Part shown: in pieces, positions 11,954 to 51,500 of the stretch
Layout: every line of letters begins with the position of its first letter
Numbering within the stretch: the first letter of the stretch is position 1
DNA from: Patescibacteria group bacterium
GTDB lineage: Bacteria > Patescibacteriota > Patescibacteriia > JAXHNJ01
Assembly (NCBI GenBank): GCA_034520665.1
Contig: JAXHNJ010000002.1
Location: forward strand, 352,660-416,659
DNA length: 64,000 nt
Direction of reading: 5' to 3'
Notes under the pieces: model-generated
The model's database searches: none
What the model was told of the DNA's origin: nothing
What the model saw: the letters and a program-made list of their open reading frames with translations, nothing else
Translations under genes and position numbers: made by a program

Positions 11954-12946
11954 CTAAGAATTACACACCTTAAAAATAAACAAGTCAAAAAGCACTCTCG
12001 GTTCAGCCTGGCTTGTTTTTATTTTCAGGTCAATATCTAGAAGCTGCTGGTAAATATTTTTTAATTCTTTAAATTTAAAATTTCTGGTTTGAACTAAAGA
12101 TTTTTTAGCTACGAAAGGGTGTAAATTTAAACGATTGGCAATGGTATAATAATTGCTTTCTTCTTGGGAAACTTCTTTAACCTGAACTAAAATTCTAAAA
12201 AGACGGCTAAGCATAGCCAGTAGATAAAGCTCATTTTCACCGCTCATAATCTGATCCCTGATTAGTTTTAAAGCTAATTTTTTCTTTTTTTCAGCCAAGG
12301 CATCAGTCAATTTAAAAATATCCGTGTCATACTTAGTTTTTACAAATAAACTAACATCATCTTTATTAATAACTTTTCCTTTTTTATAATTAATTAATTT
12401 TTCAATTTCATTATTCATCTGCCATAAATCCTGGCCAACTAAAGCCAGTAATAAATCCAGAGCTACTGGTTCAATTCGTCCGCCCCTTTTTCTAATTTCT
12501 TTTTCAGTCCAGTTTTTTAGCCTGTACCCTTTGAGTAAACCAAAATCTTCAACTTTAGCTTCTTTAGCCAGATATTTTTGTAGAGGCGAAACTTTCTTAC
12601 GGCCTCTTTTTTTCTTACCGCGGCCCTGATTTTCGATATCACCTTCCCAAAAAATTAAAACTTCATCCTGGCTTAATTTATTTTCTTTTAAATATTTAAC
12701 TACTTCTTTTTGTATTTTCTCTTTTTTATTTTTGCCCATCAAATCTTCTATAACCACTAACTTCTTTTTTGAAAGCAGTCCTTTATTGCCTAATTTATTT
12801 CTTAAATCTTCCAACTTTAATTTTTCACCGGCTAAAACTTCAATATTAAAACCTTGAGGGTCGTATTTTTTCTTAAACCCTTCTCTGTAAAATTTTAGTT
12901 TTTGCCGGGAGCGAAAAGTATCGGCTCCGTAAAGAAAAATTATCAT
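11954..12946 (-). CDS. holA: DNA polymerase III delta subunit
   Basis: N-terminus MIIFLYGADTFRSRQKL... is a typical HolA start. 330 aa. The holA-rpsT neighbourhood is conserved in many bacteria. Confidence 0.7.
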   Translation of the reverse strand: MIIFLYGADTFRSRQKLKFYREGFKKKYDPQGFNIEVLAGEKLKLEDLRNKLGNKGLLSKKKLVVIEDLMGKNKKEKIQKEVVKYLKENKLSQDEVLIFWEGDIENQGRGKKKRGRKKVSPLQKYLAKEAKVEDFGLLKGYRLKNWTEKEIRKRGGRIEPVALDLLLALVGQDLWQMNNEIEKLINYKKGKVINKDDVSLFVKTKYDTDIFKLTDALAEKKKKLALKLIRDQIMSGENELYLLAMLSRLFRILVQVKEVSQEESNYYTIANRLNLHPFVAKKSLVQTRNFKFKELKNIYQQLLDIDLKIKTSQAEPRVLFDLFIFKVCNS

Positions 12947-19404: not shown

Positions 19405-21675
19405 TCAAGAATCTAATTTTCTAGCTTTAAACCATTTAATCAATAAGGTGCCCCCGGTAATAATTACGCCAGCTAAACAAACCCACAAATATTTATAAAT
19501 ATTACTTTTATTATCCTCTCCTTCAATCATAATTTCTTTTTCGCTAGTAGCCCCTAAAACTTCACCTTCTTCATCTTCAGCTGCTTCTGATATTTTTTCT
19601 TCCCCTAGAACCCGGGCTTCATCTAACACTCTTATATCACTGTTTACTCTTGGCAATAATCTAAACCCCAAATCATTATCATAAGAAATTAAAATACCTA
19701 AAACTTCTACTTGGCTGCCTTCTTTATAATCATGGCCATTTATATTAGTGCCTCTTTTATAATAAATTTCAATTTCTTCTGTTTCTTCACTTAAAAGCAT
19801 TTTTGTTTTTGAGTTTTCTAAAACACTGCCATTAACTATAACCAAACTGCCGAAATAAGTTTCATCAATTTCTCCTAAACTTAACCTGATCGCTTCCGGA
19901 AAAATATCTTGATCGCTCAATATCTTAACATCCTCCTCACTGCCAATATTAATTTTCTTTTCCCCGCTACTCTCTGAAATCTTGCCGGTTATTTTTACAT
20001 AATCACCAATTTTCAAGTCCGGAAAATCTTTTTTATATGAATATATTTTAATACCGTTTTGCCCATCAAAAAGATAAAAGTACTGAACCCCAAAAACAGC
20101 CGGTTCCACCGCTACAAAACCTTTGACTATTACTTCCTGGCCTTTTTCTAATTCTTTAGCCCGATTGATTGATACTTCGGATATTTTTGCTGCTTCTGAT
20201 ACTTCTAACTCCTTTACCTCTGCTTCATCCTTTATCCCTAAGACTTTCTCTGAATTTTCCACCTCCTCTAAATCCTCTGTTTCTCTTTTCTTTTTTACAT
20301 CTCCTAAAATCTCATTTTCACTGCCCGGGCTGACCAAAGAAGTCCAAGCCCAACTATTAGTGCCGGCTTTTCTGGCAAAAGAAGAGCCTTTTATTGCTTC
20401 GGGATATTCTACTCCATTAACCACTTTTTGCTTGGGGTCTAAAAGTTGTAAGGTCATACCTGAATTTTTTAGATATATCTTTGTTTGCTGATAACCAAGA
20501 ACTAGAAAGCTTTCTGTTTCTATTAAAGTATCTTTTTCAAAAGTAAAGTATTTTTTACCATTATAAATCTGCCAGCCTCTTAGATTAACCGGTTGATTGT
20601 CTTTATTGATTAATTCAATAAATTCGTTTTCCAGATCACTGCCTTCAGGATTAGGAAAAACTTCATTAATTAAAATTTTATCAGAAAAATCATACTCGAT
20701 ATTTTTGGCTTTATCTTCAGTATTTTCATCTTCTAAATCTAAATTTTCATTTTCTTCCTCCTGATTATCTTCCTCTTCATTTACTTCATCAAAAACAAAC
20801 TCTTCCTCCTCTTCTTCTTTTTCTTTAACTACTACACTTAAGCTGGCAGTGACTTTATTATAACCGTCACTAATGGTTAAAGTAACACCATAATCACCAA
20901 CTGTCTGAAAAACATGATGCGGAGTAATGCCTTCTCCCTGCTGGCCATCTCCAAAATCCCAGGAAAAGCTTAATTCATCCTCTTCCGGGTCAAAAGAGTC
21001 AGAAGCGTCGAAATAAACTTTTTCACCGACTAATACTTCCCTATCTTCTCCGGCCTCAATCACCGGCGGCTGGTTTGAATTTTCCTGACCCGGGGTACCA
21101 AATTCTTGGTCAGTTTTAAAGCCTGTTTTCTGGCTGGCAATATGCCAGGAACTTTCTAAACTTCCCTCTTCAATTTTTGTGTTTCTTTCCATTGACTGCC
21201 AGACCTCACCGGAAGAATATTCGCCTGATAAAGGCTGCCCTGAACCATCATCAGCTGTGTCAATTAAATTTCCCTTATCATCATAAAGTTTTATCTCAAG
21301 CTGGCTGTTGGACAAAGAGACTGACGTATCCACCAAATTGCTTTCTACATTTAGAGCTGACTTTTCTGATTCTGATGAATAATTAGAAATAATATAAAAA
21401 TTATCTAACACTTCACCTTCTGGAATCTCTAGCATTAATTTTTCTTCCCCGGAAGATTTCTTGCTTAAATACCAGTTTGATAAATCAACCCGGGAATCAG
21501 ATAAATTTTTCAGCTCCAACCATTCATCATAAGAAGAAATACTTGACCCCATCCACATCAATTCGTTAATAACTACCATGGGCCTTTCATAAGACTGGAC
21601 TTTTTTAGCTTTAATAAAAAGACCATTACTCACTAATAAAATAATGAGTAAACTAATAATAATTTTTTTAGTCAT
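19405..21675 (-). CDS. Cell-surface protein with LTD - PKD - LTD - OB-fold architecture and C-terminal TM anchor
   Basis: Signal peptide. LTD-like VVINELMWMGSS...DEWLELKN. PKD-like SFSWDFGDGQQG...GDYGVTLTISDG. Second LTD ILINEVFPNPEGSDLENEFIELIN. OB-fold-like KGFVAVEPAVFGVQYFYLFDGQNGIKIY. C-terminal TM plus basic tail. Confidence 0.6.
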   Translation of the reverse strand: MTKKIIISLLIILLVSNGLFIKAKKVQSYERPMVVINELMWMGSSISSYDEWLELKNLSDSRVDLSNWYLSKKSSGEEKLMLEIPEGEVLDNFYIISNYSSESEKSALNVESNLVDTSVSLSNSQLEIKLYDDKGNLIDTADDGSGQPLSGEYSSGEVWQSMERNTKIEEGSLESSWHIASQKTGFKTDQEFGTPGQENSNQPPVIEAGEDREVLVGEKVYFDASDSFDPEEDELSFSWDFGDGQQGEGITPHHVFQTVGDYGVTLTISDGYNKVTASLSVVVKEKEEEEEEFVFDEVNEEEDNQEEENENLDLEDENTEDKAKNIEYDFSDKILINEVFPNPEGSDLENEFIELINKDNQPVNLRGWQIYNGKKYFTFEKDTLIETESFLVLGYQQTKIYLKNSGMTLQLLDPKQKVVNGVEYPEAIKGSSFARKAGTNSWAWTSLVSPGSENEILGDVKKKRETEDLEEVENSEKVLGIKDEAEVKELEVSEAAKISEVSINRAKELEKGQEVIVKGFVAVEPAVFGVQYFYLFDGQNGIKIYSYKKDFPDLKIGDYVKITGKISESSGEKKINIGSEEDVKILSDQDIFPEAIRLSLGEIDETYFGSLVIVNGSVLENSKTKMLLSEETEEIEIYYKRGTNINGHDYKEGSQVEVLGILISYDNDLGFRLLPRVNSDIRVLDEARVLGEEKISEAAEDEEGEVLGATSEKEIMIEGEDNKSNIYKYLWVCLAGVIITGGTLLIKWFKARKLDS

Positions 21676-21740
21676 TAGTTTAATCCTCGTTAAGCCACCG
21701 TATTTATTTTTTAGTTGTGGTTATTGCAGCTAGTAAGGTT

Positions 21741-22148
21741 TTAGGTTTTAGTTTTTGTAATTCTTTTATTATTAAAATTATCCCAAGCCTTGGCCAAGGT
21801 AAATGTTTGCCGAGCAATTTTATCATATTCTTCGATTAAATTATTACATAAATTTTTATCAAAATTATAAAAATCTTTAAGCTGTGATAAGCCAACAATA
21901 GTCTCATTAATTTCAGCTAAGGCATCATCAAGATATTTCTGAAAACCGGCCTTTTGGTGTTTTTTAGCATAACCTTCGGCAATAAGACGTGGTATAGCTT
22001 TACAAGATCTTCTTAACTGAGATGACAAATCATTTCTCTCTATCGAAGGAATTAATGGCAATATTTTATCAAATACAATAACACAAGTTTTATAACTTGA
22101 TCTATAAATTTCTAAATCATTGAAACTTTTTATTTTTCTATAAACCAT
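21741..22148 (-). CDS. Four-helix-bundle protein (23S rRNA intervening-sequence protein family)
   Basis: ...DLEIYRSSYKTCVIVFD...LSSQLRRSCKAIPRLIAEGYAKKHQKAGFQKYLDDALAEINET matches the family pattern. The ORF-track start at 22190 is probably an N-terminal extension; the internal ATG is at 22148. Confidence 0.65.
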   Translation of the reverse strand: MVYRKIKSFNDLEIYRSSYKTCVIVFDKILPLIPSIERNDLSSQLRRSCKAIPRLIAEGYAKKHQKAGFQKYLDDALAEINETIVGLSQLKDFYNFDKNLCNNLIEEYDKIARQTFTLAKAWDNFNNKRITKTKT

Positions 22149-22348
22149 AACTACAACCTTACTAGCCGCCATAACTAAAACTAAATTCAATAAAAAAATT
22201 TGGTGACTCCTTTAGCGGAGCCACCAAAATCTGTCTACAAGTATAGAATATATTTTTCGGCTAAATATGTCAAGTTGTAAATCCACAAATTATCAACTTC
22301 TATTATAGTATGACCTTAAGCTCCGTCAAAGGACACAAGTTTTGCCCT

Positions 22349-24405: not shown

Positions 24406-25161
24406 TCATCTAACTTTATTCGAATATTTAATCATCTGTTTGGCATTTTTAGGAGCGTATCCTTTTTCGTCATTATCAAAATAACAATAGATTTCTTTTA
24501 CCCTTTTTTCTTTTTTAATCTTTTTAAAATAACTTGCCCAAGCCCTTAAACTATTTCCATGATAATTACCCTGATAAGGCTTATCACTGGGACCGTGTAA
24601 ACGAATGTAAGCAAAATCAGCTGTTATTTTTCGCGGCGTTTTAATACCGGCCAGCTGATAAAGGCAGAAGGCAATATTATTTTTCTTAAGCAAATTATAG
24701 ACATCATCACGCCACCAGGACTGATCCCGAAATTCTATGGCAATTTGTTTTTTCTTCGGCAGTAAATTAACAAAGTTATTTAATCTTTCAATATTCTTAT
24801 ACCAATTAGGCGGCAGCTGAAAAAGGATTGGCCCGAGATTATTATTCAAAAGATTTACTCGTGAAAAAAAGCGTTTTAGACTTTCTTTGGGATTTTTTAG
24901 CTTTTTCATGTGGGTGATATACCGGCTGGCTTTGACTGAAAAGATAAATTCTTTTGGCACTTTTTTTCTCCAGCTTTTTATTACTTTTTTTGAAGGCAGG
25001 TTATAAAAGGTATTATTTACTTCTACTGTCTGGAAATGATCAGCATAATAATTCAAAAAATTATTAGTCTTAATTTTTTCTGGATACCAAGCTTTTTGCC
25101 AGTGTTTATAATTCCAACCAGAGGTACCAATATGAATTGTGTCTTTGCTATTCTTAGCCAT
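24406..25161 (-). CDS. DUF72 (YecE/UPF0759) family protein
   Basis: HIGTSGWNYKHWQKAWYPEKIK...NNTFYNLP is the characteristic DUF72 N-terminus. Confidence 0.85.
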   Translation of the reverse strand: MAKNSKDTIHIGTSGWNYKHWQKAWYPEKIKTNNFLNYYADHFQTVEVNNTFYNLPSKKVIKSWRKKVPKEFIFSVKASRYITHMKKLKNPKESLKRFFSRVNLLNNNLGPILFQLPPNWYKNIERLNNFVNLLPKKKQIAIEFRDQSWWRDDVYNLLKKNNIAFCLYQLAGIKTPRKITADFAYIRLHGPSDKPYQGNYHGNSLRAWASYFKKIKKEKRVKEIYCYFDNDEKGYAPKNAKQMIKYSNKVR

Positions 25162-25332
25162 TAAAAAATTTGTGGTTTATTTAATACACTTTCAGTATAA
25201 CATTTATAATTACTTAAACAATTTGATTATTTATAATTTATTTTATTCCCCTTATTATCCCAGCTGTTTTTAACCACCTTTCCGCCGTCTTAACTTTCTG
25301 CTAAAATAAATGAGTAAACTATTATCAATTAG

Positions 25333-26067
25333 ATGATTATTTTATATAGTATTCTTTGTTTTTTAGCTATAACTATTTTTCTTTTAGTTATTCTTTTATT
25401 TAAGCCGAGGAAAAATAAATTTATTTATGAAAAACAAATAGATAAAATACTTCTTAATAATAGCTTTAGTTCATTTAAGCCCGATGAAATGCATCTTCTT
25501 GAAAAAATAGAAAATAACACCGCTTTTTTCCGAATAACTAAACCGGGGCTCTATTCGGCTTATGAAAATAATGTCTACTCTCAATATTATATAGTTCCAA
25601 AATTATATAAAAACAATAAAAAAAATATTGGAATTAATGCTTTTTTTATCCGGAAAAAACCAAAAACCTGGTTCGAACAAAGATTCCCCCAAAGATCAAC
25701 CTTATTCTTTGAATTTTTATTAAATATTCAAATAAATGAAGAAATTATTATATTTAGAGAGTCTTTTAATACTAAGCTCATGAGAAAATTTTTTCCTGAT
25801 AGCCTTTTAGTTGAGGATGTAGACATTGAAAGTATGCTTTTTAACCATAAATATCAGGTATTCACCAATAATAAAAAAATTGCTTTTAAACTGCTTGATC
25901 CTCTAATTGTTGATTTTCTTAATAAAGAAAAATATGTTTCTTTAATTATAAAAGAGAATTCAATAATTTTTAAAATTTGGCCAAAAATTTCTGAAAAAAA
26001 ATTAAAGCAGTACTTGAATATTGGCGTAAAATTTGTTAAACATATAAAGAGTATCTATAAAAAATAA
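25333..26067 (+). CDS. Membrane-anchored hypothetical protein (244 aa)
   Basis: N-terminal TM. No recognised motif. Its last ~30 codons lie inside direct-repeat copy A. Confidence 0.45.
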   Translation: MIILYSILCFLAITIFLLVILLFKPRKNKFIYEKQIDKILLNNSFSSFKPDEMHLLEKIENNTAFFRITKPGLYSAYENNVYSQYYIVPKLYKNNKKNIGINAFFIRKKPKTWFEQRFPQRSTLFFEFLLNIQINEEIIIFRESFNTKLMRKFFPDSLLVEDVDIESMLFNHKYQVFTNNKKIAFKLLDPLIVDFLNKEKYVSLIIKENSIIFKIWPKISEKKLKQYLNIGVKFVKHIKSIYKK

Positions 26068-26093
26068 TAAATTTAGCCCAGGTGGCGGAACTG
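25965..26093. repeat. Direct repeat copy A (~129 bp): 3' end of ORF 25333..26067 plus the first 18 nt of tRNA-Leu
   Basis: About 95% identical to 28009..28137. Confidence 0.85.
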
Positions 26094-26162
26094 GTAGACG
26101 CGCTAGGTTTAGGACCTAGTGGGAGTAATCCCGTGGAGGTTCAAGTCCTCTCCTGGGCACCA
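26076..26162 (+). tRNA. tRNA-Leu (anticodon TAG), class II with long variable arm, CCA encoded
   Basis: Cloverleaf: acceptor GCCCAGG/CCTGGGC; anticodon stem CTAGG/CCTAG with loop TTTAGGA; T-arm GGTTCAAGTCC; 3' ACCA. Confidence 0.9.
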
Positions 26163-26186
26163 GTGCTAACATTTTTATCAAACTAT

Positions 26187-27512
26187 ATGACTAATATGAA
26201 ATATTTATTTACAAGTACTATTATTTGCCTTTTTTTATTAATCCCTTTGGCAGCTCATAGCACTGACGATTGTGAAAACGGTTATGAATATCAGCGTATG
26301 AGTGGAGTTGGTTGTGTTCAAATAAATTGTAACGACATCCCTAATGCTCATTATAGTTACACAAAAGATTGTATTTGTGGTTCCTCTGGCAGTATCCATG
26401 AAGACCCTTCCGACCCAAATACTGAGTGTTATAGAAAGCCCACTTATAAAGCTTGTCCAAGTTGCTTATACGCCTGTGTTCATGCTGGTGAAGAGTGCCC
26501 CGGAGAAGAAAGAGATAATTATGTTGAAGATAGTCAAACAAATACAAACACTAACATAAACAGCAACACTAGTAATCAAAATTCTAACACCAATCAAAGC
26601 GTAAATAATAATACTAATTCCAGCAATACAAATATTTCTGTCGCCGGCACTAATATATCTCTTTCCACTTCAGGAAATATTGATTACAACAGTTGTGAAT
26701 ATATCTGCAGTAAATTTACTCGAGGAAATAAATACGCTGTCGTAAATTTAGCTGAAGGAACTCCTCCAAACTGTAAATGTCAGATAGATATAAACGACAA
26801 ATTAAATCGTCTTAACCAAACCATAAGTGTCAACGGGGACAATGAGACCACATTAACATTTGACCCTAACACTGGTCGGTTAATTAAAAAAACAAAAATC
26901 AATAGAAAAGATGAAGTGGAAAAAATTAGAAAAAGATTAGGCTATAAGTACACGCAAGAACAAATAGATAAATTACTAGCCTCTAATAAAATTGATGAAT
27001 GGTTTAATCAACAGATAAAAAATATTAAAACTTCTACCAGCTTAAAAGATCCGCAGTTTTGGTGGCAACATATGGTCGCCATTTGGGATCATGGATTTGG
27101 TGGTAACAGCGCTGACTTTGTTGACACCTATGAATTCGGGCGTTGTGGTGATTCAATGCTTTGGTTGAACCGTAATCTTACTGCTCATTTGGATATAAAT
27201 GACAACAAAAATACTGCTGGACAAAAACACGAAGCCATCCTTTCAATTACTGGAGAAAAATACGGCAACCTATTAAATCATACCTCCACTCTTATTCGCC
27301 CACAGGGTATATCAAACGTCGCTTGGGAGGATTTAGTAAAAACCCTCCAAGATAAATCAGGAGGTGGAGACAAAAATCCCGGTATTAAAAGAAATGATCT
27401 AAAAAATATCGCCCCAGAAATAATGGATGCAAAAGTATTAGATCCATACAAAAAAGAAATAACCACCGTTAGAGAATTTATTAAGGGATGGTCTTATATA
27501 AGAATTGGTTAA
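26187..27512 (+). CDS. Secreted Cys-rich protein with Asn/Thr-rich low-complexity linker (441 aa)
   Basis: The ORF-track start at 26082 overlaps the tRNA. The internal ATG at 26187 precedes a signal peptide (MTNMKYLFTSTIICLFLLIPLAAHS). Eleven or more Cys in the first 120 mature residues, then NTNTNINSNTSNQNSNTNQ... low complexity, then a C-terminal domain of unknown function containing HGFGG...GRCGDS. Confidence 0.55.
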   Translation: MTNMKYLFTSTIICLFLLIPLAAHSTDDCENGYEYQRMSGVGCVQINCNDIPNAHYSYTKDCICGSSGSIHEDPSDPNTECYRKPTYKACPSCLYACVHAGEECPGEERDNYVEDSQTNTNTNINSNTSNQNSNTNQSVNNNTNSSNTNISVAGTNISLSTSGNIDYNSCEYICSKFTRGNKYAVVNLAEGTPPNCKCQIDINDKLNRLNQTISVNGDNETTLTFDPNTGRLIKKTKINRKDEVEKIRKRLGYKYTQEQIDKLLASNKIDEWFNQQIKNIKTSTSLKDPQFWWQHMVAIWDHGFGGNSADFVDTYEFGRCGDSMLWLNRNLTAHLDINDNKNTAGQKHEAILSITGEKYGNLLNHTSTLIRPQGISNVAWEDLVKTLQDKSGGGDKNPGIKRNDLKNIAPEIMDAKVLDPYKKEITTVREFIKGWSYIRIG

Positions 27513-28017
27513 TTATAAATATATGAAAAAAAGAAAAATAATTTTTTTGTCTATAATAGCAATAATTTTTTTGATCTTACTTTTTGGTTATTTTATTTTG
27601 CGTTGGATACCAAAAGATATTACAGAAGTAACCGAGATAAATTCCGAAGAACATTGGGGAACAATTACCGGCTCGCTGGGTTATCCAAGCGATATTATTC
27701 CTGACATGGGAGTTTGTGCCGAAAGCACTGACCAGAATGACTTATTTTGCACCTATGAAATAATTGAGAATGAAGATTTCACTTATGGATTAGGCTATGA
27801 AATAAAAGTGCCACCAGATTCATATTACGTTTTTGCTCATCTTATTGATGAAACTAACAAAAATATTGGGTATACAGATGAAGATAAAGCCTACTATTCA
27901 AAATTTGTAACCTGTGGCATGGGCCTAGAGTGTACTTCGCACAAACCAATTAAAGTAACTGTGGAAAGATATGAAACCGTTACCAGAATTGATCCAATAG
28001 ATTGGTATAATTTTTAA
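27505..28017 (+). CDS. Membrane-anchored hypothetical protein (170 aa)
   Basis: N-terminal TM. Overlaps the upstream stop by 8 nt, which suggests coupling. Confidence 0.45.
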   Translation: MVNYKYMKKRKIIFLSIIAIIFLILLFGYFILRWIPKDITEVTEINSEEHWGTITGSLGYPSDIIPDMGVCAESTDQNDLFCTYEIIENEDFTYGLGYEIKVPPDSYYVFAHLIDETNKNIGYTDEDKAYYSKFVTCGMGLECTSHKPIKVTVERYETVTRIDPIDWYNF

Positions 28018-28137
28018 AATTTGGCCAAAAATTTCTGAAAAATAATTAAAACAGTACTTGAATATTGGCGTAAAATTTGTTAAACATATACAGAGTATCT
28101 ATAAAAAATAATAAATTTAGCCCAGGTAGTGGAACTG
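28009..28137. repeat. Direct repeat copy B (~129 bp)
   Basis: Matches 25965..26093 with about 6 mismatches, including a frame-disrupting change in the copied ORF tail. Confidence 0.85.
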
Positions 28138-28430
28138 TCCCGAAGTTGTCAAAATCTTTAATTTTGTGACAACTTCGAGGATCCTCGTTCTCCTTTTGCC
28201 AGACGAAAAATTTACTTGCCCGCCTATGCCTGCGCCAGGGTGGTGAAACTGGTAGACACGCAAGGTTTAGAACCTAGTGAGCGCAAGCTCGTGAGAGTTC
28301 AAATCTCTCCTCCGGCATAGGCATTGGCGGGCGGGCCTGCCAGGGCTTGGGAGTTCAATTCTCTCTCTCCTAGCACTAACATCGACCTGTGCCAGACGTA
28401 GCCTTTGGCGAAGTCATCTCCTGGGCCCCA
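28120..28430 (+). pseudogene. Array of tRNA-Leu-derived fragments: split tRNA-Leu-like 5' (28120-28137) and 3' (28409-28430) pieces flanking a 14-bp hairpin, a pseudo-tRNA-Leu(TAG)-like body (28222-28322) and a further T-arm/3'-trailer fragment
   Basis: The 5' piece GCCCAGGTAGTGGAACTG breaks in the D-loop. The 3' piece AAGTCATCTCCTGGGCCCCA resembles the 3' end of the intact tRNA-Leu. The internal body (GGTGGTGAAACTGGTAGACACGCAAGGTTTAGAACCTAGTGAGCGCAAGCTCGTGAGAGTTCAAATCTCTCC) has D, anticodon (TAG), variable and T arms, but its acceptor strands do not pair (TGCGCCA vs CTCCGGC) and it is enclosed by a 9-bp stem GCCTATGCC/GGCATAGGC. A third fragment repeats the T-arm plus the CACTAACAT trailer. 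Confidence 0.45.
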
Positions 28431-28528
28431 TAAATCAAGCTTTTAGTCTATTTTTCTGGAATTAAAAATATATTTATTAAATTATAAATTTTTGCTAATA
28501 TGAAAGCATAAAATAACTATAAAAAATC

Positions 28529-29527
28529 ATGCTTTTATTTTGGATTTTAGTCTTTATTGTTTCCTTAGCAGTATTAGTAAAATGCGCTGACTGGTTTTTA
28601 ATCAGTGCGGAAAAAATAGGCCTATCCCTGGGCTTATCCCCTTTTATTGTCGGCGTGACTATTGTTGCTTTAGGTACTTCTTTTCCTGAACTTATTACTG
28701 CTTTAACCGCCTCGTTCAAAGGAGTAACTGAAATTGTGCCAGCTAATGCTATTGGCTCCAACATCGCCAATATACTTTTAGTGGTTGGTTTTGCCGCCAT
28801 TTTCGCTAAAAAATTAACTGTTACCAAAAGCTTAATTAATCTTGACCTGCCTCTTTTAGCTATTGGCACCGTCCTTCTTTTGGGTATTCTTTGGGATGGG
28901 GAAGTTAATATATTGGAAGCAGTACTTTTGCTTTTAACTTATACCACCTATATTTTTTATACTCTAAAACATGAGGAAGAACCTAACTCTTCTGAAGAAA
29001 GAGAAATTCTGCCATCGCGCCCCAGCCGCCGTCACCACATTACCCACAAAAAAAAGAAAGGGGGAATTAAACAACAAAAATTAATAAAAAAGGATTTTGT
29101 TTTATTAGTTATCGGAGTTTTAGGCTTAATTTTTGGTTCTCGTTATTTAATAAATTCGGTTACTGAGATTTCCGCTATATTAGAAATTGGCGCCGGAGTT
29201 ATTGCTATCTCGGCCGTGGCTATTGGTACCTCTTTGCCCGAATTAATGGTTACTATTAAGGCCGCTCTAGCTCATAAATCAGAAGTGGCCTTAGGTAATA
29301 TATTCGGCTCCAATATCTTTAACATGCTAGTGGTAGTTGGTTTACCCGGTATTTTTTCCAACTTAAAAGCTGATGAAAAAACCATTACCCTTGGTCTGCC
29401 CGCTTTGGCTCTAACTACTTTAATATTTGTTATCTCCGGTATCTCCAGAAAGATTCATATCTGGGAAGGTTTTTTCTATCTTTCTTTGTATGTTTTATTT
29501 ATTGGTAAGTTATTTGATTTGTTTTAA
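28529..29527 (+). CDS. CaCA-family Na+/Ca2+ (cation/Ca2+) exchanger, YrbG-like
   Basis: Two alpha-repeats GTSFPEL and GTSLPEL. About 10 TM segments. Central hydrophilic loop. Confidence 0.85.
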   Translation: MLLFWILVFIVSLAVLVKCADWFLISAEKIGLSLGLSPFIVGVTIVALGTSFPELITALTASFKGVTEIVPANAIGSNIANILLVVGFAAIFAKKLTVTKSLINLDLPLLAIGTVLLLGILWDGEVNILEAVLLLLTYTTYIFYTLKHEEEPNSSEEREILPSRPSRRHHITHKKKKGGIKQQKLIKKDFVLLVIGVLGLIFGSRYLINSVTEISAILEIGAGVIAISAVAIGTSLPELMVTIKAALAHKSEVALGNIFGSNIFNMLVVVGLPGIFSNLKADEKTITLGLPALALTTLIFVISGISRKIHIWEGFFYLSLYVLFIGKLFDLF

Positions 29528-37126: not shown

Positions 37127-39513
37127 AACCAATACAAGAGAAATAAGGAGTTATCCACAAAAATATGGAACAAAAAAACCTTAATCTTAAACAAAAAAGC
37201 GGCTAATTTGCGCCTAATTATTTTTTAAGCGTAAAAGTCGCTTGAAAGCGGCTTTTTTGTTTCTTACATTAACTTCTTTAATAAGAACTTTGACAATTAA
37301 ATAATGGTAACAATAAAGAGCATCTACTTAAAATCAACTAAAAAATTAACTTAAATTCATATTTTTAAGCGAGTAAATCAGGATCTAAAAAAGAGCATAT
37401 GGTGGATGCCTCGACATTAAAAGGCGAAGAAGGACGTAGCAGCCTGCGATAAGCCTCGGTCAGGTGGCAAGCAACCTTTGATCCGGGGATTTCCGAATGG
37501 GGAAACCCGTCTGTCTTTTTAAGGACAGTCATCTATGTCTGAATCTATAGGACATAAGAAGTGCACCTGGGGAATTGAAACATCTTAGTACCCAGTGGAA
37601 AAGAAAAAAAAGGGTTAGCTCATAGCTAATGACGGTTTTTGCCGTCATCTGCTATTTGCTAATATATTCCCAGAGTAGTGGCGAGCGAAATGGGAAAAGT
37701 CCAAACTTGTGAAGTTTTTCCGCTTTTGGCGGGAAAGGGGTCATAAGCCCTTATACTTTACGGGGGTAGTGAGATAATTACTTTTAAATCAGCTTATGAC
37801 TGATTGGGGATAGCGTATGTAGTAGACTTTCCTAAAGTTTATTAGGAAATACTATTACTATTTCCTAGCTAAATCACCTGGAAAGGTGAACCAAAGAAGG
37901 TGATAGTCCTGTAAGCAAAAGGAAATAAACTTCCTCGTGATTATTCTCGAGTACCACGAGACTCGTGAAATCCCGTGGGAATCTGGCATGACTATTTTGC
38001 CAAGACTAAATACTTTTAATGATCGATAGCGAACTAGTACCGTGAGGGAAAGGTGAAAAGCACCCCGGTGAGGGGAATGAAATAGTATCTGAAACCATAT
38101 GCTTACAAGCAGTCGGAGTCCCGCCTTTGGTGTGGATGACGGCGTGCCTATTGAAGAATGAGCCAACGACTTAGTTTTATACAGTTTTCGATTAAGCCCT
38201 TCAAGGGCGAAATCAAAGTGAAAGCAAGCGTGAAAACGCGACCATTAGTTAATTAGTGGTTAGTTATTTTATATAATTAATTCACTAATTTTCTAAAAGA
38301 TTGTATGAACTAGACCCGAAGCCAAGTGAGCTATCCATGGCCAGGATGAACTCTTGAGAAATCAAGGGGGAGGTCCGAACCCACTAGCCGTGCAACGCTA
38401 GGGGATGAGCTGTGGATAGAGGTGAAATGCTAATCGAACTTGGCAATAGCTGGTTCTCCTCGAAATAGCTTTAGGGCTAGCCTTATAAATACTTATATGG
38501 AGGTAGAGCACTGAATGGGTGCGGATGGCGTAAGCCTACCACATCCAACCAAACTCCGAATTCCATGTATTTAATTATAGGAGTCAGACCATGGGGGCTA
38601 AGCTCCATCGGTCAAAAGGGAAACAGCCCAGACCACCATCTAAGGTCCCTAAATTTAGGCTAAGTGTAAAGGCAGTATCGCAACTGAAACAACTAGGAGG
38701 TTGGCTTAGAAGCAGCCATCCTTTAAAGAAAGCGTAACAGCTCACTAGTCAAGTTACTTTGCGCCAAAAATTTATAGGGGCTCAAGCCTAATACCGAAGA
38801 TGTGGTCCCCCACTTATTTATAGGTGGGGGAGGTAGAGGAGCATTCCACGTTTACTGAAGTCAATTTGTTAAAATTGATGGAAAACGTGGAAGTGAGAAT
38901 GTTGGCATAAGTAGCAAAAATCAGGGTGAGAATCCCTGACACCGCAAGCTTAAGGTTTCCTGGGCAACGTGAATCGACCCAGGGTTAGTCGGTCCTAAGG
39001 CGAGGCCGAAAGGCGTAGTCGATGGACAGCTGGTTAATATTCCAGCACCGTCTATTTTGCTTGCAACTAATTGACGCATCCTCAAAGTCTGAGCGCATTT
39101 TGGCTATATGCGTTCCTTCACTTAATTTAAGTGGGGGAGAAGAAAAAACCTCCGGGTGGATTCGATTCAGGTGGAGCGGGTGCCAAGAAAAGATTAGCCG
39201 TGTCTAACTTAATAGATGACCGTACCAAAACCAACACAGGTGAGCGGGCAGTTAATCTGCTAAGGTGTACGAGAGAACCCTCGTTTAGGAACTCGGCAAA
39301 ACAGTGGCCGTAACTTCGGGATAAGGCCTTCCCCCACTTGCTTGCAAGTGTGGGGACGCAGTTAATGATCTCAAGCGACTGTTTATCAAAAACACAGGTC
39401 CCTGCTAAACCGTAAGGTGATGTATAGGGGCTGATGCCTGGCCAGTGTCAGAACGTTAAGGGGATAGGTGCAAGCCTTGAACTGAAGCGCTGATGAACGC
39501 CGGCGATAACTAT

Positions 39514-40250
39514 AAGTGACGATTGTAGTTATAAAATTTGGCTATATGCGGGAAACCCTCCTTCATTTGAAGTACTCGCCTTTTACTAAAAGGCAGTAAC
39601 AATCTTCAAAGGACATAATTGTCAGGAGGCAATCCGCAGGAAAGACTCTTGGTAAGAAAGGATTAAACTATGGTAAAAAATAAATGGTTAAAAAATGTAC
39701 CAATAAATATTGGTAATTATATTGCTGGATTTGTAGACGGTGAAGGAAGCTTCAATGTTTCATTAAGAAAAAGAAAAGATCATAAAATGAAATGGCAAGT
39801 TGTATTAACCTTTAATGTATCTCAAAAAGAAAGAGCTATATTGTCTTTACTTAAACGTTATTTAAGTTGTGGCAGACTACAAACTAGAAAAGATGGAGTA
39901 TCTTATTATGTAGTTTCAAATCCATTATCTATTAAAGAAAAAATTATTCCTTTTTTTAGTAGATTTCCCTTCTTATCACAAAGAAAAAGAAGAAACTTCT
40001 CAATTTTTAAAAGAATTACTAATTTAGTCATTAAAAAGGAGCACTTAAATAGCTCGGGACTAGAAAAAATAATTCAACTCAGAGAAAAATTAAATCCCGG
40101 ACGTGGAAGAAAAAGAAAATATTCATTAAAAGACTATAAACAAAACCAAGAGAATCCTCAGAGACTATACGCCAAACCGCGATCTTTTCGTAAAGAAAAA
40201 AGCGGATGAGATAGTCCGATCTCATAGGTAACTATGAGCTAACAATAAAG
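39514..40250 (+). mobile_element. Group I intron in 23S rRNA at E. coli-equivalent position ~L1917 (helix 69), carrying a LAGLIDADG ORF
   Basis: Exon junction reconstructs ...GGCGAUAACUAU|AAUCGUCCUAAGGUAGCG with a compensatory H69 stem. The 5' exon ends in U and the intron ends in G. A P1-like pairing exists between exon ATAACTAT and intron GTAGTTAT. Confidence 0.7.
39670..40209 (+). CDS. LAGLIDADG homing endonuclease (single-motif, homodimer type), intron-encoded
   Basis: NYIAGFVDGEGSF motif. 179 aa. Embedded in the 23S intron. Confidence 0.85.
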   Translation: MVKNKWLKNVPINIGNYIAGFVDGEGSFNVSLRKRKDHKMKWQVVLTFNVSQKERAILSLLKRYLSCGRLQTRKDGVSYYVVSNPLSIKEKIIPFFSRFPFLSQRKRRNFSIFKRITNLVIKKEHLNSSGLEKIIQLREKLNPGRGRKRKYSLKDYKQNQENPQRLYAKPRSFRKEKSG

Positions 40251-40254
40251 AATC

Positions 40255-40317
<63 letters not shown>

Positions 40318-40826
40318 GAGAACTCTCTCAACGAGGGACTCGGTGAAATTGCATTACGAGTAAAGATGCTCGTTACCCACGGCCGGACGAAAAGACCCCG
40401 TGAAGCTTTACTACAACTTGGCATTGAGTTAAGTTTGTGTTTGCTCAGTATAGGTGGGAGACTTTGAAGTCCCAATTTCGGTTGGGACTGAGTCGCCATG
40501 TGAAATACCACCCTAACGTAAATTTAGTTCTAATTTTTGACCATGAAACTGGTCAGGAAAACAGTGTCTGGTGGGTAGTTTGACTGGGGCGGTCGCCTCC
40601 CAAATTGTAACGGAGGCGCTTACAAAGGTTGGCTAGGCTGGGATGGAAATCCAGCCGATAGTGTAAAGGCATAAGCCAGCTTTACTGCAAGACCTACAAG
40701 TCGCGCAGTTACGAAAGTAGAACTTAGTGATCCGACTCTCGATTATAGGATCGGAGAAGCTCATCGGATAAAAGTTACTCCGGGGATAACAGGCTTATCG
40801 GTTCCAAGAGTTCATATCGACGAACC

Positions 40827-40867
<41 letters not shown>

Positions 40868-40898
40868 AAGAAGCTCCCAAGGGTTTGGCTGTTCGCCA

Positions 40899-40942
<44 letters not shown>

Positions 40943-41765
40943 AAAATATAAATAACGTTCTGTCTCTTTTCGTCCATAAAATTAAAATGATCGTGCTGTC
41001 TATAAATCTGGCTATATGCTGGAAACTCTGGCATCCTCAAATAAGGAGAATAGAGGATTGAAGAATCTCACACTACGTGTTATAATATACGTGAAAATGT
41101 GTTGAGTGCAGACAACCAGCAGGGAAGATTTATAGGGAAAAATATGTTAAATCCAAATTACATTTCTGGCTTTGTAGATGGAGAAGGCAGTTTTCATGTC
41201 GCCATTTACAAAGATAATCGTATGAAACATAATATAAAAATAATACCGGAATTTCATATTAGTCAACGAAAAGATAGTAAAATGATTCTGGAAAAAATAA
41301 AAGATTATCTTCAATGTGGTTATATCAAGAAAAATCATGCTAAAAATAAAAATGATTTGACATATGTTTATGTAGTTAGAAATCGAAAAGACCTTCTAGA
41401 AAAAATAATTCCTTTCTTTGAAAAATACACACTAAAAACAGTGAAGAAAAAAGACTATAACATATTCGCTAAAATAGTAGAACTTATGAATAATAATAGA
41501 CACAGTAAAAAAAGTGGACTTAGAAAAATTATTAAACTTTCTTACTCTATGAATAGAAAAGGTAAATACAGAAGATCAAAAATCTCCCTATAAAAACCCT
41601 CAGAGACTATACGCCGGACTCCAACTATAAAATGGAGAAGATATAGTCCGAACTCTATGGCGACATAGAGAGATAAGTAGAAATAACTTATCCCGTAACC
41701 ATAAACCCATTTTTGAAATTTGAATTTTGGAATTTGGAGTTTGTTGTTACGTAGTAACAATTCTG
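40943..41765 (+). mobile_element. Group I intron in 23S rRNA at E. coli-equivalent position ~L2593, carrying a LAGLIDADG ORF
   Basis: Exon junction reconstructs ...CGUCGUGAGACAGU|UCGGUCUCCUAUCCGCCGUGGGCG. The 5' exon ends in U and the intron ends in G. Shares a ~25-nt core (ATYTGGCTATATGCKGGAAACYCT) with intron 1. Confidence 0.7.
41099..41593 (+). CDS. LAGLIDADG homing endonuclease (single-motif), intron-encoded
   Basis: NYISGFVDGEGSF motif. 164 aa. Inside the second 23S intron. Confidence 0.85.
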   Translation: MLSADNQQGRFIGKNMLNPNYISGFVDGEGSFHVAIYKDNRMKHNIKIIPEFHISQRKDSKMILEKIKDYLQCGYIKKNHAKNKNDLTYVYVVRNRKDLLEKIIPFFEKYTLKTVKKKDYNIFAKIVELMNNNRHSKKSGLRKIIKLSYSMNRKGKYRRSKISL

Positions 41766-42211
41766 TCGGTCTCCTATCCGCCGTGGGCGTTTAGAAACTT
41801 GAGAAGATTCTTCCCTAGTACGAGAGGACCGGGAAGAACGAACCTCTAGTCTATGAGCTGTTCCGCCAGGAGCATAGTTCAGTAGCTACGTTCGGAAAGG
41901 ATAAACGCTGAAAGCATATAAGCGTGAAGCCTCCTTCAAGATTAGGTTTCCTTATTTAGTCTCCTTCAAGATAAGAAGGTTAATAGGTGGCCGGTGTAAG
42001 ATCCGTAAGGATTTGAGCCAAGCCATACTAACAGACAATTATTCCTGATTTACTCACTTAAAAATTATGAATTCATTAAAAAATAAATGAAAAAATACAA
42101 AGCCACTTTGAAATTACTCTTAATCTTTATTGTTTTAACCATTTTTTTAGAAATACTACTTTATTTTTCTCCAGCCACTATAGCGGCTAATTAAAATTAA
42201 GAGAGGTAGTA

Positions 42212-42329
42212 TCCTGGTGATACTAGCGACTGTGTTACACCCCTTTCCATTCCGAACAGGGCCGTTAAGACAGTCAGCGCCGATGATACTTGGGGTTTAT
42301 CCCTGAGGGAAAGTAGGTCATCGCCAGGA
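42212..42329 (+). rRNA. rrf: 5S ribosomal RNA
   Basis: Helix I CCUGGUGA/UCAUCGCCAGG. Conserved CCGAACAGGGCCGTTAAG and AGTAGGTCATCGCCAGG. An extended precursor stem GAGAGGTAGTA/ATTGCCTCTC flanks it. T-run terminator at 42341. Confidence 0.85.
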
Positions 42330-50965: not shown

Positions 50966-51095
50966 TGAGTTGTGCCGAATTGGCCCCACTTCACAGTGGT
51001 TTCGCAGGATAAATAAGGCACCGCTCTCCCTACATCACTTGCAAGGCCAGGTGACATCGTGTAGTCGAATAACAAGGCGAAAAATTATCATAAAT
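50966..51095. other. ~130-nt GC-rich (~50%) island in AT-rich surroundings; candidate small structured RNA
   Basis: GGTGAGTTGTGCCGAATTGGCCCCACTTCACAGTGGTTTCGCAGG...GGCACCGCTCTCCCTACATC.... Local composition contrasts strongly with flanking sequence. No ORF. Confidence 0.25.
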
Positions 51096-51370
51096 TTATG
51101 AGTTATATTGTCTATATTCTACTTTTATCCAATAAACAATTATAGACCGGTTTTACTAAAAATTTGAATCAAAGAATTAAACAACATAAAAATGGTGCGG
51201 TTAAATCAACGGCAAAAGACAACCAATAAAATTAATTCATTACGAAGTGTATGCCAAAGAATCAGGGGCCAGACAAAGAGAAAAATATTTAAAGACAACA
51301 GAAGGTAAAAGACTTTTAAAAATGCGGATTAGAAATTTATCAAAGGAATTACAATAGTAATCCGCAGTGC

Positions 51371-51457
51371 GGAGGGGTGCCGGAGTGGTTGAACGGGCCG
51401 CTCTCGAAAAGCGGTAAGCCCTTACGGGTTTCGTGAGTTCGAATCTCACCCCCTCCG
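51371..51457 (+). tRNA. tRNA-Ser (anticodon CGA), class II; CCA not encoded
   Basis: Acceptor GGAGGGG/CCCCTCC. Anticodon stem-loop CCGCT-CTCGAAA-AGCGG. Long variable arm. T-arm GTGAGTTCGAATCTCAC. Flanked by the 10-nt inverted repeat TCCGCAGTGC / GCACTGCGGA. Confidence 0.9.
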
Positions 51458-51500
51458 CACTGCGGAAGATATTTTTTGCCTCTGCCAATAAATAAAAAAT

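Follow-up and report, generated by a model that had tools for sequence, protein, structure and literature searches.

A 311-nt stretch (28120-28430) at a tRNA-Leu(TAG) locus of a Patescibacteria (CPR) genome is probably a composite of recombination leftovers and not one gene. It lies in a 64-kb window (the whole stretch of DNA that was analysed, 64,000 nt) from a genome of 33% G+C, whose bacterial 23S rRNA match scores 2073 bits. An earlier note on this DNA had described five tRNA-derived pieces, numbered (i) to (v), and read them as recombination scars at a tRNA gene or, alternatively, as parts of a tRNA that is processed, permuted or split. Each of the five lies at the position given there, and the first of these readings is borne out by a syntenic relative in which the tRNA gene is uninterrupted and to whose tRNA 3' end piece (v) is orthologous. 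The features of the locus are as follows (window positions, with the basis of each assignment in brackets).

25952-26093, + strand: repeat U, in which the final 33 codons of ORF244 are followed by an 8-nt spacer and by the first 18 bases of the intact tRNA-Leu
26076-26162, + strand: intact resident-type tRNA-Leu(TAG), CCA encoded (ARAGORN; Rfam, 56.7 bits)
26143-26162, + strand: left copy of a 20-nt direct repeat, T-loop to CCA (repeat search; spacing 2268 nt)
26163-26173, + strand: trailer GTGCTAACAT, left end of the extra DNA (alignments)
26187-28017, + strand: cargo genes ORF441 (signal-peptide protein, 26187-27512) and ORF164 (27523-28017) (no Pfam match)
27996-28137, + strand: repeat U', in which a pseudo-copy of the ORF244 3' end, its frame closed by a premature stop, precedes the spacer and tRNA bases 1-18
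28141-28177, + strand: piece (ii), a hairpin of 32% G+C whose 11-bp stem is perfect and which no T-run follows (folding)
28197-28205, + strand: left copy of the 9-nt direct repeat TGCCAGACG (exact-copy count)
28218-28233, + strand: helix leader arm GCCCGCCTATGCCTGC, 75% G+C, containing GCCCGCCT (pairs with 28318-28332)
28234-28317, + strand: piece (iii), a complete tRNA-Leu(TAG) of foreign type, in which A73 is present and CCA is not encoded (ARAGORN; Rfam)
28318-28332, + strand: helix trailer arm TAGGCATTGGCGGGC, containing TTGGCGGGC (pairing)
28333-28382, + strand: piece (iv), a truncated second tRNA unit, 3' half plus trailer (repeat search; alignment with the intact gene)
28390-28398, + strand: right copy of TGCCAGACG (exact-copy count)
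28411-28430, + strand: piece (v), T-loop to CCA (orthologous to the relative's tRNA 3' end, contiguous with the shared downstream spacer)
28431-28528, + strand: ancestral spacer between tRNA and Na/Ca-exchanger gene, 15% G+C (aligns with L085 10823-10918)

The interrupted locus and its uninterrupted relative

In the close relative, contig L085, ORF244 (79% amino-acid identity) is followed by a single intact tRNA-Leu(TAG), 96 nt of spacer and then the Na/Ca-exchanger gene, and the genes for PRPP synthase, HAD and DUF72 are syntenic. The resident tRNA-Leu of the window differs by 1 base from its L085 orthologue. Because the spacer that follows the CCA in L085 aligns as the orthologue of window positions 28431 onward, piece (v) is the displaced original 3' end of the tRNA gene. 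Compared with L085, the window carries about 2.27 kb of extra DNA (26143-28410), a segment bounded by the 20-nt direct repeat. The two repeat copies agree at 18 of 20 bases, and both substitutions in piece (v), including A73 to C, are derived relative to L085 and the intact copy. Since 2.27 kb separates the T-loop from the displaced last 20 bases, the intact gene carries a regenerated 3' end and a new trailer. That trailer is not homologous to the L085 trailer, and a related one follows piece (iv). The direction of change, insertion here or deletion in L085, rests on one outgroup, since a single orthologous empty site was found; a contig scan and protein search for Na/Ca-exchanger synteny returned no relative with the locus, the closest matches having 60-75% identity and different neighbours.

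The cargo is of a chromosomal kind. ORF441 and ORF164 form a two-gene cassette conserved in Patescibacteria, in which ORF441 homologues (55-77% identity) are always paired with an ORF164-like gene and occur in unrelated contexts. No integrase gene or remnant accompanies these two genes in the 2.27-kb insert, and no Phage_integrase match was obtained among the tested ORFs of at least 120 aa between window positions 11954 and 36565.

Directly after ORF164 lies U', the second copy of a 142-nt direct repeat (96% identity over 131 nt). The first copy, U, is the functional one, its ORF244 frame being open on translation. As U' has in common with U an 8-nt spacer insertion absent from L085, the duplication arose within this lineage. 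Piece (i) (GCCCAGGTAGTGGAACTG, 28120-28137) is the terminal 18 bases of U', 16 of which match the start of the intact tRNA-Leu at 26076. U' repeats the sequence that directly precedes the resident tRNA and presumably includes its promoter. Beyond it stands the perfect hairpin that had been reported as piece (ii), confirmed here with an 11-bp stem; no terminator was called on it.

Assemblers can be misled by repeats as long as these 142 nt, and the window comes from a metagenome-assembled genome, so that a chimeric join at U/U' has to be weighed. Such an artefact is very unlikely. The diagnostic junctions recur in two distinct Logan contigs of run SRR26473340: L222 spans the tRNA, ORF441/ORF164 and the start of U', confirming the ORF164-U' junction, and L081, with 100% identity, extends from U' across the entire region as far as the Na/Ca exchanger. 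The ORF164-U' and U'-hairpin junctions, both unique to this arrangement, are thus each contained in a separate contig. In the contig with the U'-hairpin junction, U' bears its private variants GGTAGTGG and continues into the hairpin and beyond, and sister run SRR26473339 reproduces 28372 onward.

The inner tRNA-Leu and its flanks

Piece (iii) had been taken for a pseudo-tRNA with non-pairing acceptor strands. This description does not hold, as both ARAGORN and Rfam call a second tRNA-Leu(TAG) here, and its acceptor strands (GCCAGGG/CTCCGGC) pair at 6 of 7 positions, once as G.U, the seventh being an A.C mismatch. A class II cloverleaf, as expected of tRNA-Leu, is recognized by Rfam RF00005 over the full model (1-71) with 43.4 bits, above the gathering score of 29 (E = 2.9e-7). 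The sequence is 90.5% identical to the tRNA-Leu(TAG) of L092, an unrelated groundwater contig, vs 79.7% for the resident gene. That it evolved as a real tRNA is shown by compensatory differences in its D, variable and T stems. At present it is redundant, because the intact resident-type tRNA-Leu(TAG) exists 2 kb upstream. Two stem pairs are non-standard, 4:69 (A.C, acceptor) and 28:42 (A.A, anticodon stem), both positions being standard pairs in 7/7 close homologues, and the Rfam score is about 12-13 bits below those of the other tRNA-Leu genes scored (about 55-57 bits). The mismatches and the lower score suggest that the imported copy is decaying. The inner tRNA could still be functional. Neither a sigma-70-like promoter nor a terminator was called for it.

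A metagenome scan with a 25-mer from the variable/T-arm of the inner tRNA recovered ordinary tRNA-Leu genes only and no second copy of the region, and nothing was found when the inner tRNA and the piece (ii) hairpin were scanned against viral contigs. The metagenome tRNA-Leu matches are useful for typing the inner tRNA.

The inner tRNA is enclosed by a leader-trailer helix that extends its acceptor stem. A stem had indeed been noticed here, with a length of 9 bp; the stem stands and the length does not, since 28218-28233 and 28318-28332 give about 15-17 pairs (17 including G.U by script, 8+7 in the predicted fold). These flanks have 75% G+C vs 15% in the native spacer, and the motifs GCCCGCCT and TTGGCGGGC are each unique in the window. 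Immediately downstream, piece (iv) aligns with the 3' half of the intact gene plus trailer, in agreement with its description as a T-arm and trailer fragment. It contains the leader-like motif GCCTGCCAG, likewise unique in the window, a T arm (GGGAG/TTCAATT/CTCTC) and, after an acceptor 3' strand that is damaged, CACTAACAT as its trailer. The repeat TGCCAGACG, with two copies in 64 kb vs 0.06 expected, brackets a 193-nt block that contains the imported tRNA and piece (iv). A transposon with inverted ends bounded by this 9-nt repeat was considered and rejected, as the ends are not inverted repeats.

A second nest and the rival explanations

A similar arrangement occurs around tRNA-Thr(GGT) on L098, an unrelated Patescibacteria contig with homologous GC-rich flanks. 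There, a 5' fragment broken in the D-loop is followed by TCC and a hairpin, a GC-rich leader, an inner tRNA with the same anticodon, a homologous trailer and finally the 3' portion of the outer tRNA. The motifs GCCCGCCT, TTGGCGGGC and GCCTGCCAG occur once each in the 64-kb window and once each in L098, and in both they flank the inner tRNA. The trailer of piece (iii) is homologous to that of the tRNA-Thr nest; between the two trailers, AGGCATTGGCGGGCGGGC and AGGCGCTTGGCGGGCAGGC, helix pairing is kept through changes on both strands. A screen of all compared loci for tRNAs enclosed by outer acceptor pairs recovered the L098 tRNA-Thr nest and nothing else. Scanning viral contigs for GCCCGCCT...TTGGCGGGC yielded 120 matches in GC-rich phages (median 62% G+C), which are ascribed to chance because none encloses a tRNA.

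Among 48 scored tRNAs (those scorable of 52 ARAGORN tRNAs in the loci compared), the length of the leader-trailer helix is bimodal: most have at most 6 pairs, and five distinct genes have 10-17. Two of these five directly follow a GIY-YIG gene. The L098 GIY-YIG gene (3684-3956) is intact and directly upstream of tRNA-Trp; that of the window (51099-51354) is a pseudogene beside tRNA-Ser, with a Pfam match of 4e-16 after repair; and a third remnant abuts tRNA-Cys in L089. No such nuclease gene stands beside the tRNA-Leu, where a tblastn search of 27990-28530 with two GIY-YIG proteins produced chance matches only. Nothing was found when the GIY-YIG protein was scanned against viral contigs.

For a composite of recombination leftovers, three events may be envisaged, whose order and mechanism are inferred and not unique. 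DNA in which the ORF441-ORF164 cassette stood between a tRNA 3' end and downstream sequence would have entered at the T-loop, by site-specific recombination or by homology-anchored illegitimate recombination after DNA uptake. Segmental duplication or Campbell-type recombination would then have copied U and the tRNA 5' end beyond the cargo. Finally, the 193-nt block bracketed by TGCCAGACG would have brought the foreign tRNA with its flanks. On this account, pieces (i), (iv) and (v) have no function. The earlier note had instead invoked successive tyrosine-integrase insertions, and its tRNA scar stands. In classical nested islands, such elements would have entered successively at the tRNA-Leu 3' end and each would have left a displaced 3' fragment behind, the integrases and most of the cargo being deleted later. 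An intact tRNA with a displaced repeat of its last 20 bases and a T-loop boundary is the signature used in island mapping (PMC4383910), and piece (iv) with its trailer resembles a second, older junction. However, the insert and the tested ORFs around it hold no integrase, the cargo is found elsewhere in non-island contexts, and the residual 'elements' between fragments are just 20-30 nt long. Insertion at the 3' end cannot yield piece (i), because this piece duplicates the 5' flank and the tRNA 5' end, and the complete foreign tRNA is left unexplained as well. Nested islands therefore appear improbable.

A more specific process is suggested by the L098 nest, which is hard to square with purely haphazard scarring. 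A small mobile unit, consisting of a tRNA gene within a GC-rich leader-trailer helix, might enter a chromosomal tRNA gene with the same anticodon, disrupt it close to the D-loop and provide a substitute copy; it would move with the help of a GIY-YIG homing nuclease or in the manner of a palindromic element. At the Leu locus its target would have been the second member of a duplicated tRNA-Leu pair, leaving piece (i), the cassette and piece (iv), and the nuclease gene would since have been lost; the Leu nest would be an old, nuclease-less and decaying case, and the L098 tRNA-Thr(GGT) nest a live example. Points in its favour are the identical part order in both nests, the shared flanking motifs, the helix pairing preserved between them, the bimodal helix lengths with their five long members, and the GIY-YIG genes before two of these and against the L089 tRNA-Cys; a precedent is phage T4 SegB, a GIY-YIG homing nuclease acting in a tRNA gene cluster (PMC2330249). 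On the other hand, the nests compared here number 2, and neither a nuclease gene nor a remnant is present in the Leu locus. Moreover, CCGCC...GGCGG hairpins abound in L098, and for that reason the shared motif may do no more than mark DNA imported from an L098-like lineage. Such a tRNA-invading cassette is a possible but rather unlikely origin of the nest. It is equally doubtful, to the same degree, that Patescibacteria harbour an undescribed selfish element of this build, in some cases accompanied by a small GIY-YIG nuclease gene, on which the cell comes to depend by relying on the invader and not on splicing.

A further reading has the region encode a working tRNA that is split, permuted, nested or interrupted by an intron, or else another structured RNA that is closed by a GCCCAGG/CCUGGGC stem and matures by processing. 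Pieces (i) and (v) can pair at 7/7 positions, piece (v) ends in CCA, and transcription into the region is plausible because U' copies the sequence upstream of the resident tRNA. The 311-nt RNA also folds better than shuffles (z = -4.0), but the hairpin, the tRNA and the tRNA helix account for its low folding energy. The proposal that piece (v) completes piece (i) fails on content: together they provide no more than the acceptor stem, the 5' strand of the D stem, the 3' strand of the T stem and portions of the D-loop and T-loop. Missing are the anticodon and variable arms, the 3' strand of the D arm and the 5' strand of the T stem. The only full set of arms belongs to the self-contained inner tRNA. 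The two pieces derive from different duplicated segments, that of piece (i) containing a dead gene fragment; position 73 is C in piece (v) and A in the intact copy, in L085 and in the inner tRNA; L085 carries an ordinary gene, and an intact copy lies 2 kb upstream. The host is bacterial, and no Rfam intron family was matched. With E values up to 10, Rfam reported two tRNAs only between 25800 and 28700, and no group I/II intron, tmRNA, YrlA or T-box; ARAGORN found no tmRNA. A group I intron in tRNA-Leu was rejected for its wrong position and missing model match, and a tmRNA-like two-piece tRNA domain for its missing T arm. Any such gene is highly improbable, and the earlier note's alternative of a processed, permuted or split tRNA is not retained.

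Significance and comparison with known systems

Taken alone, the locus illustrates how tRNA genes in very small, recombination-prone CPR genomes gather insertions, duplications and foreign tRNA copies, and how displaced tRNA fragments can pass for exotic gene structures. Should the recurrent nest prove real, it would represent a new way for a mobile element to occupy an essential RNA gene, in which the element carries a spare copy instead of splicing itself out. It would also draw attention to the unusually long leader-trailer helices on some Patescibacteria pre-tRNAs. In the literature, no description was found of nested bacterial tRNAs, of leader-trailer helices on CPR tRNAs, or of the processing of Patescibacteria pre-tRNAs with such helices.

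Small GC-rich palindromic repeats that spread in AT-rich genomes include REP elements, Rickettsia palindromic elements and the GC clusters of yeast mitochondria. The inner tRNA is likewise flanked by GC-rich inverted repeats, with 75% G+C in a 33% genome, which resemble the many hairpins of L098. None of the elements named is known to carry a tRNA gene in its loop or to target the cognate tRNA gene.

In archaea and red algae, disrupted tRNA genes comprise intron-containing, split and permuted forms (PMC4390854, PMC3978253). The Leu locus shares with them an interruption at a non-canonical position, the D-loop, and a stem that joins distant pieces. Unlike these genes, which retain all cloverleaf parts and are spliced at bulge-helix-bulge motifs, it has incomplete outer pieces, a bacterial host and an intact copy. 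Genomic islands in tRNA genes leave attL and attR sites with a displaced tRNA 3' fragment, the basis of Islander-type mapping (PMC4383910). An intact tRNA, a near-identical copy of its last 20 bases, a T-loop boundary and an empty site in a relative are common to both, whereas the window locus is without integrase, its 2.27-kb insert holds a chromosomal-type cassette, and it includes both a second copy of the 5' flank with the start of the tRNA and an entire foreign tRNA that has the same anticodon.

Phage T4 SegB is a free-standing GIY-YIG homing endonuclease in a tRNA gene region (PMC2330249). In contrast to that system, the Leu locus has no nuclease gene, and the hosts are cellular Patescibacteria and not phage. 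As with SegB, small GIY-YIG genes lie directly upstream of tRNA genes, namely tRNA-Ser in the window and tRNA-Trp in L098, and homing-type gene conversion would explain the replaced or broken resident genes.

The tRNA-Leu pieces and their setting

The stretch at 28120-28430 is, with good support, a composite scar rather than a gene. Within it lie a dead duplicate of a 5' flank and tRNA 5' end, a hairpin, an imported and flanked tRNA-Leu(TAG), a truncated second unit and a displaced ancestral 3' end, a composition that is equally well supported. The source genome is a Patescibacteria (CPR) metagenome-assembled genome; the window encodes a bacterial 23S rRNA, and ORF244 (25333-26067) corresponds to NCBI protein U5L76_04205 at 100% identity. 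Across the whole window, ARAGORN calls three tRNAs, including a second tRNA-Leu(TAG) in the scar, and all five tRNA-derived pieces that an earlier note had described downstream of its repeat B are present in the sequence.

tRNA genes called by ARAGORN, and the five pieces
26076-26162, tRNA-Leu(TAG), intact resident gene
28234-28317, second tRNA-Leu(TAG), which is piece (iii), the inner tRNA; 43.4 bits with the Rfam tRNA model (gathering score 29)
51371-51458, tRNA-Ser(CGA)
28120-28137, piece (i), final 18 bases of a 142-nt direct repeat (repeat search)
Piece (ii), perfect hairpin of 11 bp
Piece (iv), alignable to the T arm, acceptor 3' strand and trailer of the intact gene
Piece (v), sharing 18 of 20 bases with the intact tRNA-Leu 3' end

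The acceptor strands of piece (iii), previously described as non-pairing, in fact pair at six of seven positions in the Rfam model alignment. The arrangement is genuine, and an assembly artefact is excluded by two Logan contigs: L222 spans the tRNA 3' end, ORF441, ORF164 and the start of the downstream repeat copy, and L081, at 100% identity, covers the end of that copy (private variants included), the entire region and genes further downstream. The alternative of a processed, permuted or split tRNA is rejected, as pieces (i) and (v) are unable to form a cloverleaf and Rfam searches of the region (E up to 10) returned no intron, tmRNA, YrlA or any other RNA family.

The uninterrupted locus of a relative and the make-up of the insert

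A single homologue of ORF244 was found in a collection of 5.8 billion proteins, at 79% identity, on JGI contig Ga0248669_103233 (L085). This contig and the window are syntenic over a bAvd-like gene, PRPP synthase, HAD hydrolase, DUF72 and ORF244. One intact tRNA-Leu(TAG), differing by one base from the intact window copy, comes directly after ORF244 in L085; a 96-nt AT-rich spacer and then a Na/Ca-exchanger gene follow. The spacer after the CCA (TAAATC...) aligns with window 28431-28528, directly 3' of piece (v), and not with the sequence 3' of the intact window tRNA (26163 on). It follows that the resident gene originally ended with piece (v), that homology breaks in the T-loop, and that about 2.27 kb (26143-28410) is extra in the window relative to L085. 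This one uninterrupted locus supports the proposal that the pieces are recombination scars. The extra DNA comprises a new trailer GTGCTAACAT, ORF441, ORF164, U' (the dead copy of the 142-nt repeat) with piece (i), the hairpin, the flanked inner tRNA and piece (iv).

Seven small genes between DUF72 and ORF244 in L085 (7139-9863), encoding ChaB, glutaredoxin, DJ-1/PfpI, DUF378, an unannotated ORF, a BON-domain protein and a PhdYeFM antitoxin, are absent from the window (25161-25333); gene-content differences are thus frequent around this locus. In both sequences, the bAvd-like gene (23S_rRNA_IVP family) stands beside a large LTD/PKD-domain protein (window 19405-22190; L085 1349-4057), a pairing typical of the accessory and target genes of diversity-generating retroelements.

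ORF441 and ORF164 are the only genes of the insert, and neither has a Pfam match. Together they make up a gene pair conserved in Patescibacteria that recurs in unrelated chromosomal surroundings (L094-L097, L098, L099, L100). The pair is found at 26187-28017 in the window and at 7648-9954 in L094; ORF441 is cysteine-rich and carries a signal peptide. Long direct repeats of about 260 nt also border the pair in L094; they take in the 3' end of the ORF164 homologue and are spaced 2088 nt apart, compared with 2044 nt for those on either side of the window cassette. This cassette seems to be readily duplicated.

The direct repeats of the region form three pairs in staggered positions: the 142-nt pair U/U', the 20-nt tRNA 3' ends and TGCCAGACG. 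U (25952-26093), the functional copy, and U' (27996-28137) are 96% identical over 131 nt. U' combines a copy of the final 33 ORF244 codons, cut short by a premature stop, with an 8-nt spacer and tRNA bases 1-18; its start coincides with the stop codon of ORF164, with a short ATAA overlap. Pieces (i) and (v) are not partners. Since the 8-nt spacer insertion is common to U and U' and absent from L085, the duplication occurred within the lineage of the window. With L085 as outgroup, U has acquired two private changes since then and U' three, plus two further changes in its tRNA part. The copies of TGCCAGACG, at 28197 and 28390 (chance expectation 0.06), bracket a 193-nt block that contains the inner tRNA and piece (iv).

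The inner tRNA, its flanking helix and a second nest

By its sequence, the inner tRNA is a genuine tRNA gene of foreign type, sharing 79.7% identity with the resident tRNA-Leu and 90.5% with a tRNA-Leu(TAG) on the Hainich groundwater contig L092. In the D, variable and T stems, it departs from the resident gene by compensatory changes; the inner tRNA was therefore shaped by selection as a tRNA. Its only defects are mismatches at pairs 4:69 (acceptor) and 28:42 (A.A, anticodon stem), both standard in seven of seven close homologues, and its Rfam score lies about 12-13 bits below those of the other tRNA-Leu genes scored. Position 73, where A is a major leucine identity element according to work in E. 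coli, is A in the inner tRNA and C in piece (v). An intact resident-type gene 2 kb upstream makes the inner copy redundant, and it looks as if decay had just begun. Its flanks are 75% G+C, against 33% for the genome and 15% for the native spacer.

A leader-trailer helix, stacked on the acceptor stem, encloses the inner tRNA; it has 17 pairs including G.U by script count and 8+7 pairs in the predicted fold. Such pairing, scored for 48 of the 52 ARAGORN tRNAs in the collected loci, is bimodal: most have at most six pairs, and five distinct genes have 10-17.

Helix-flanked tRNAs (10-17 pairs)
Window, inner tRNA-Leu
Window, tRNA-Ser(CGA)
L092, tRNA-Lys
L098, tRNA-Thr(GGT), 14 pairs
L098, tRNA-Trp

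The window tRNA-Ser and both L098 tRNAs are predicted to fold as clean cloverleaves on long helices. L098 (GCA_043817315.1, JBDRGY010000013.1) is a different Patescibacteria genome, chosen solely for its ORF441 homologue. At about 1493-1710, where ARAGORN calls two overlapping tRNA-Thr genes, it repeats the part order of the window, with an intact tRNA-Thr(GGT) lodged inside a broken tRNA-Thr(GGT) gene.

Parts of the tRNA-Thr(GGT) nest of L098, in order
Outer 5' fragment GCCCAGATACCTCAGC, broken in the D-loop
TCC, then a hairpin
GC-rich leader
Intact inner tRNA-Thr(GGT), 72 bits
Trailer
Outer gene from anticodon arm to 3' end, its acceptor strand pairing 7/7 with the outer 5' fragment

The motifs GCCCGCCT, TTGGCGGGC and GCCTGCCAG occur once each in the 64-kb window and in L098, and flank the inner tRNA in both; the two sets of flanking motifs are homologous. 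Between the two inner-tRNA trailers, AGGCATTGGCGGGCGGGC and AGGCGCTTGGCGGGCAGGC, and their leaders, helix pairing is kept despite changes on both strands. CCGCC...GGCGG hairpins are numerous in L098.

Two helix-flanked tRNAs, one in L098 and one in the window, lie directly downstream of small GIY-YIG nuclease genes.

GIY-YIG sequences beside tRNAs
L098 3684-3956, intact gene, 90 aa, Pfam 2e-15, followed by the helix-flanked tRNA-Trp
Window about 51099-51354, pseudogene with one in-frame stop and one frameshift; Pfam PF01541 4e-16 when repaired; followed by the helix-flanked tRNA-Ser(CGA)
L089, third remnant, abutting tRNA-Cys

All three GIY-YIG-like sequences found in about 0.9 Mb (window plus L001-L100) are immediately upstream of a tRNA; no such remnant occurs at the tRNA-Leu locus.

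Several further features were observed at these and other RNA genes. The window tRNA-Ser(CGA) is without an encoded CCA and has a 10-bp leader-trailer helix (CCGCAGTGC / GCACTGCGG); GGTGAGTTGTGCCGAATTGG at 50966-50990, followed by a small hairpin, resembles a class II tRNA 5' end, and no matching 3' fragment was found. In L098 (3460-4140), the GIY-YIG gene and tRNA-Trp lie between two partial tRNA-Trp copies, each carrying a related GC-rich hairpin that is inserted after the CCA anticodon and bordered by TCCA on either side; a run of small GC-rich hairpins further interrupts the upstream copy. Partial self-copies 70-260 nt downstream of several tRNA genes are very short inserts at those genes: exact 18-21-nt copies of the tRNA 3' end (L090 3393-3547 and 4131-4264, L092 10322-10483, L087 about 1665-1777), an exact 21-nt copy of an internal segment (L098 2041-2131) and an imperfect 3'-end copy (L001 about 3409-3680). 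The two L090 inserts share a motif resembling an antisense tRNA 3' half (TGGTGC...CGAAGGCCGG). In the rRNA region of the window (37379-42329), the 23S match extends over 3619 nt for a model of 2925 nt, and a LAGLIDADG endonuclease ORF (39670-40209) lies inside it, which makes an intervening sequence likely. Another LAGLIDADG ORF (41099-41593) is situated after the end of this match and before the 5S rRNA; all Rfam intron families stayed below the gathering score.

Order of events and precedents

Both the order of events and the enzymes are a matter of inference. In the preferred sequence, a segment carrying a tRNA 3' end and cargo would have entered at the T-loop, U with the tRNA 5' end would then have been duplicated, and the 193-nt tRNA block would have been inserted last. 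A route of the Campbell type, or by tandem duplication, would account for the region just as well. The earlier note had proposed successive tyrosine-integrase insertions; its reading of the pieces as scars is supported in general, but the mechanism is unproven, as no integrase was found in the insert or among the tested ORFs at 11954-36565, which gave housekeeping or other non-integrase matches or none. Classical nested islands of this kind possibly account for the displacement of piece (v) and are unsupported for the rest of the region. It is also conceivable, if rather improbable, that a tRNA-carrying cassette invades cognate tRNA genes and takes over their function. The L098 nest, repeating the window architecture, and the association of GIY-YIG genes with helix-flanked tRNAs speak for such a cassette; however, only two nests were seen, and a motif scan of viral contigs gave chance matches only.

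Neither nested bacterial tRNAs nor such leader-trailer helices in CPR are described in the literature searched. The wider interest lies in the recurrent nest architecture rather than in the tRNA-Leu locus itself. Among known systems, those nearest are tRNA-integrated islands (PMC4383910), the SegB nuclease of T4, which acts in a tRNA gene cluster (PMC2330249), and disrupted tRNAs in archaea and red algae (PMC4390854, PMC3978253).
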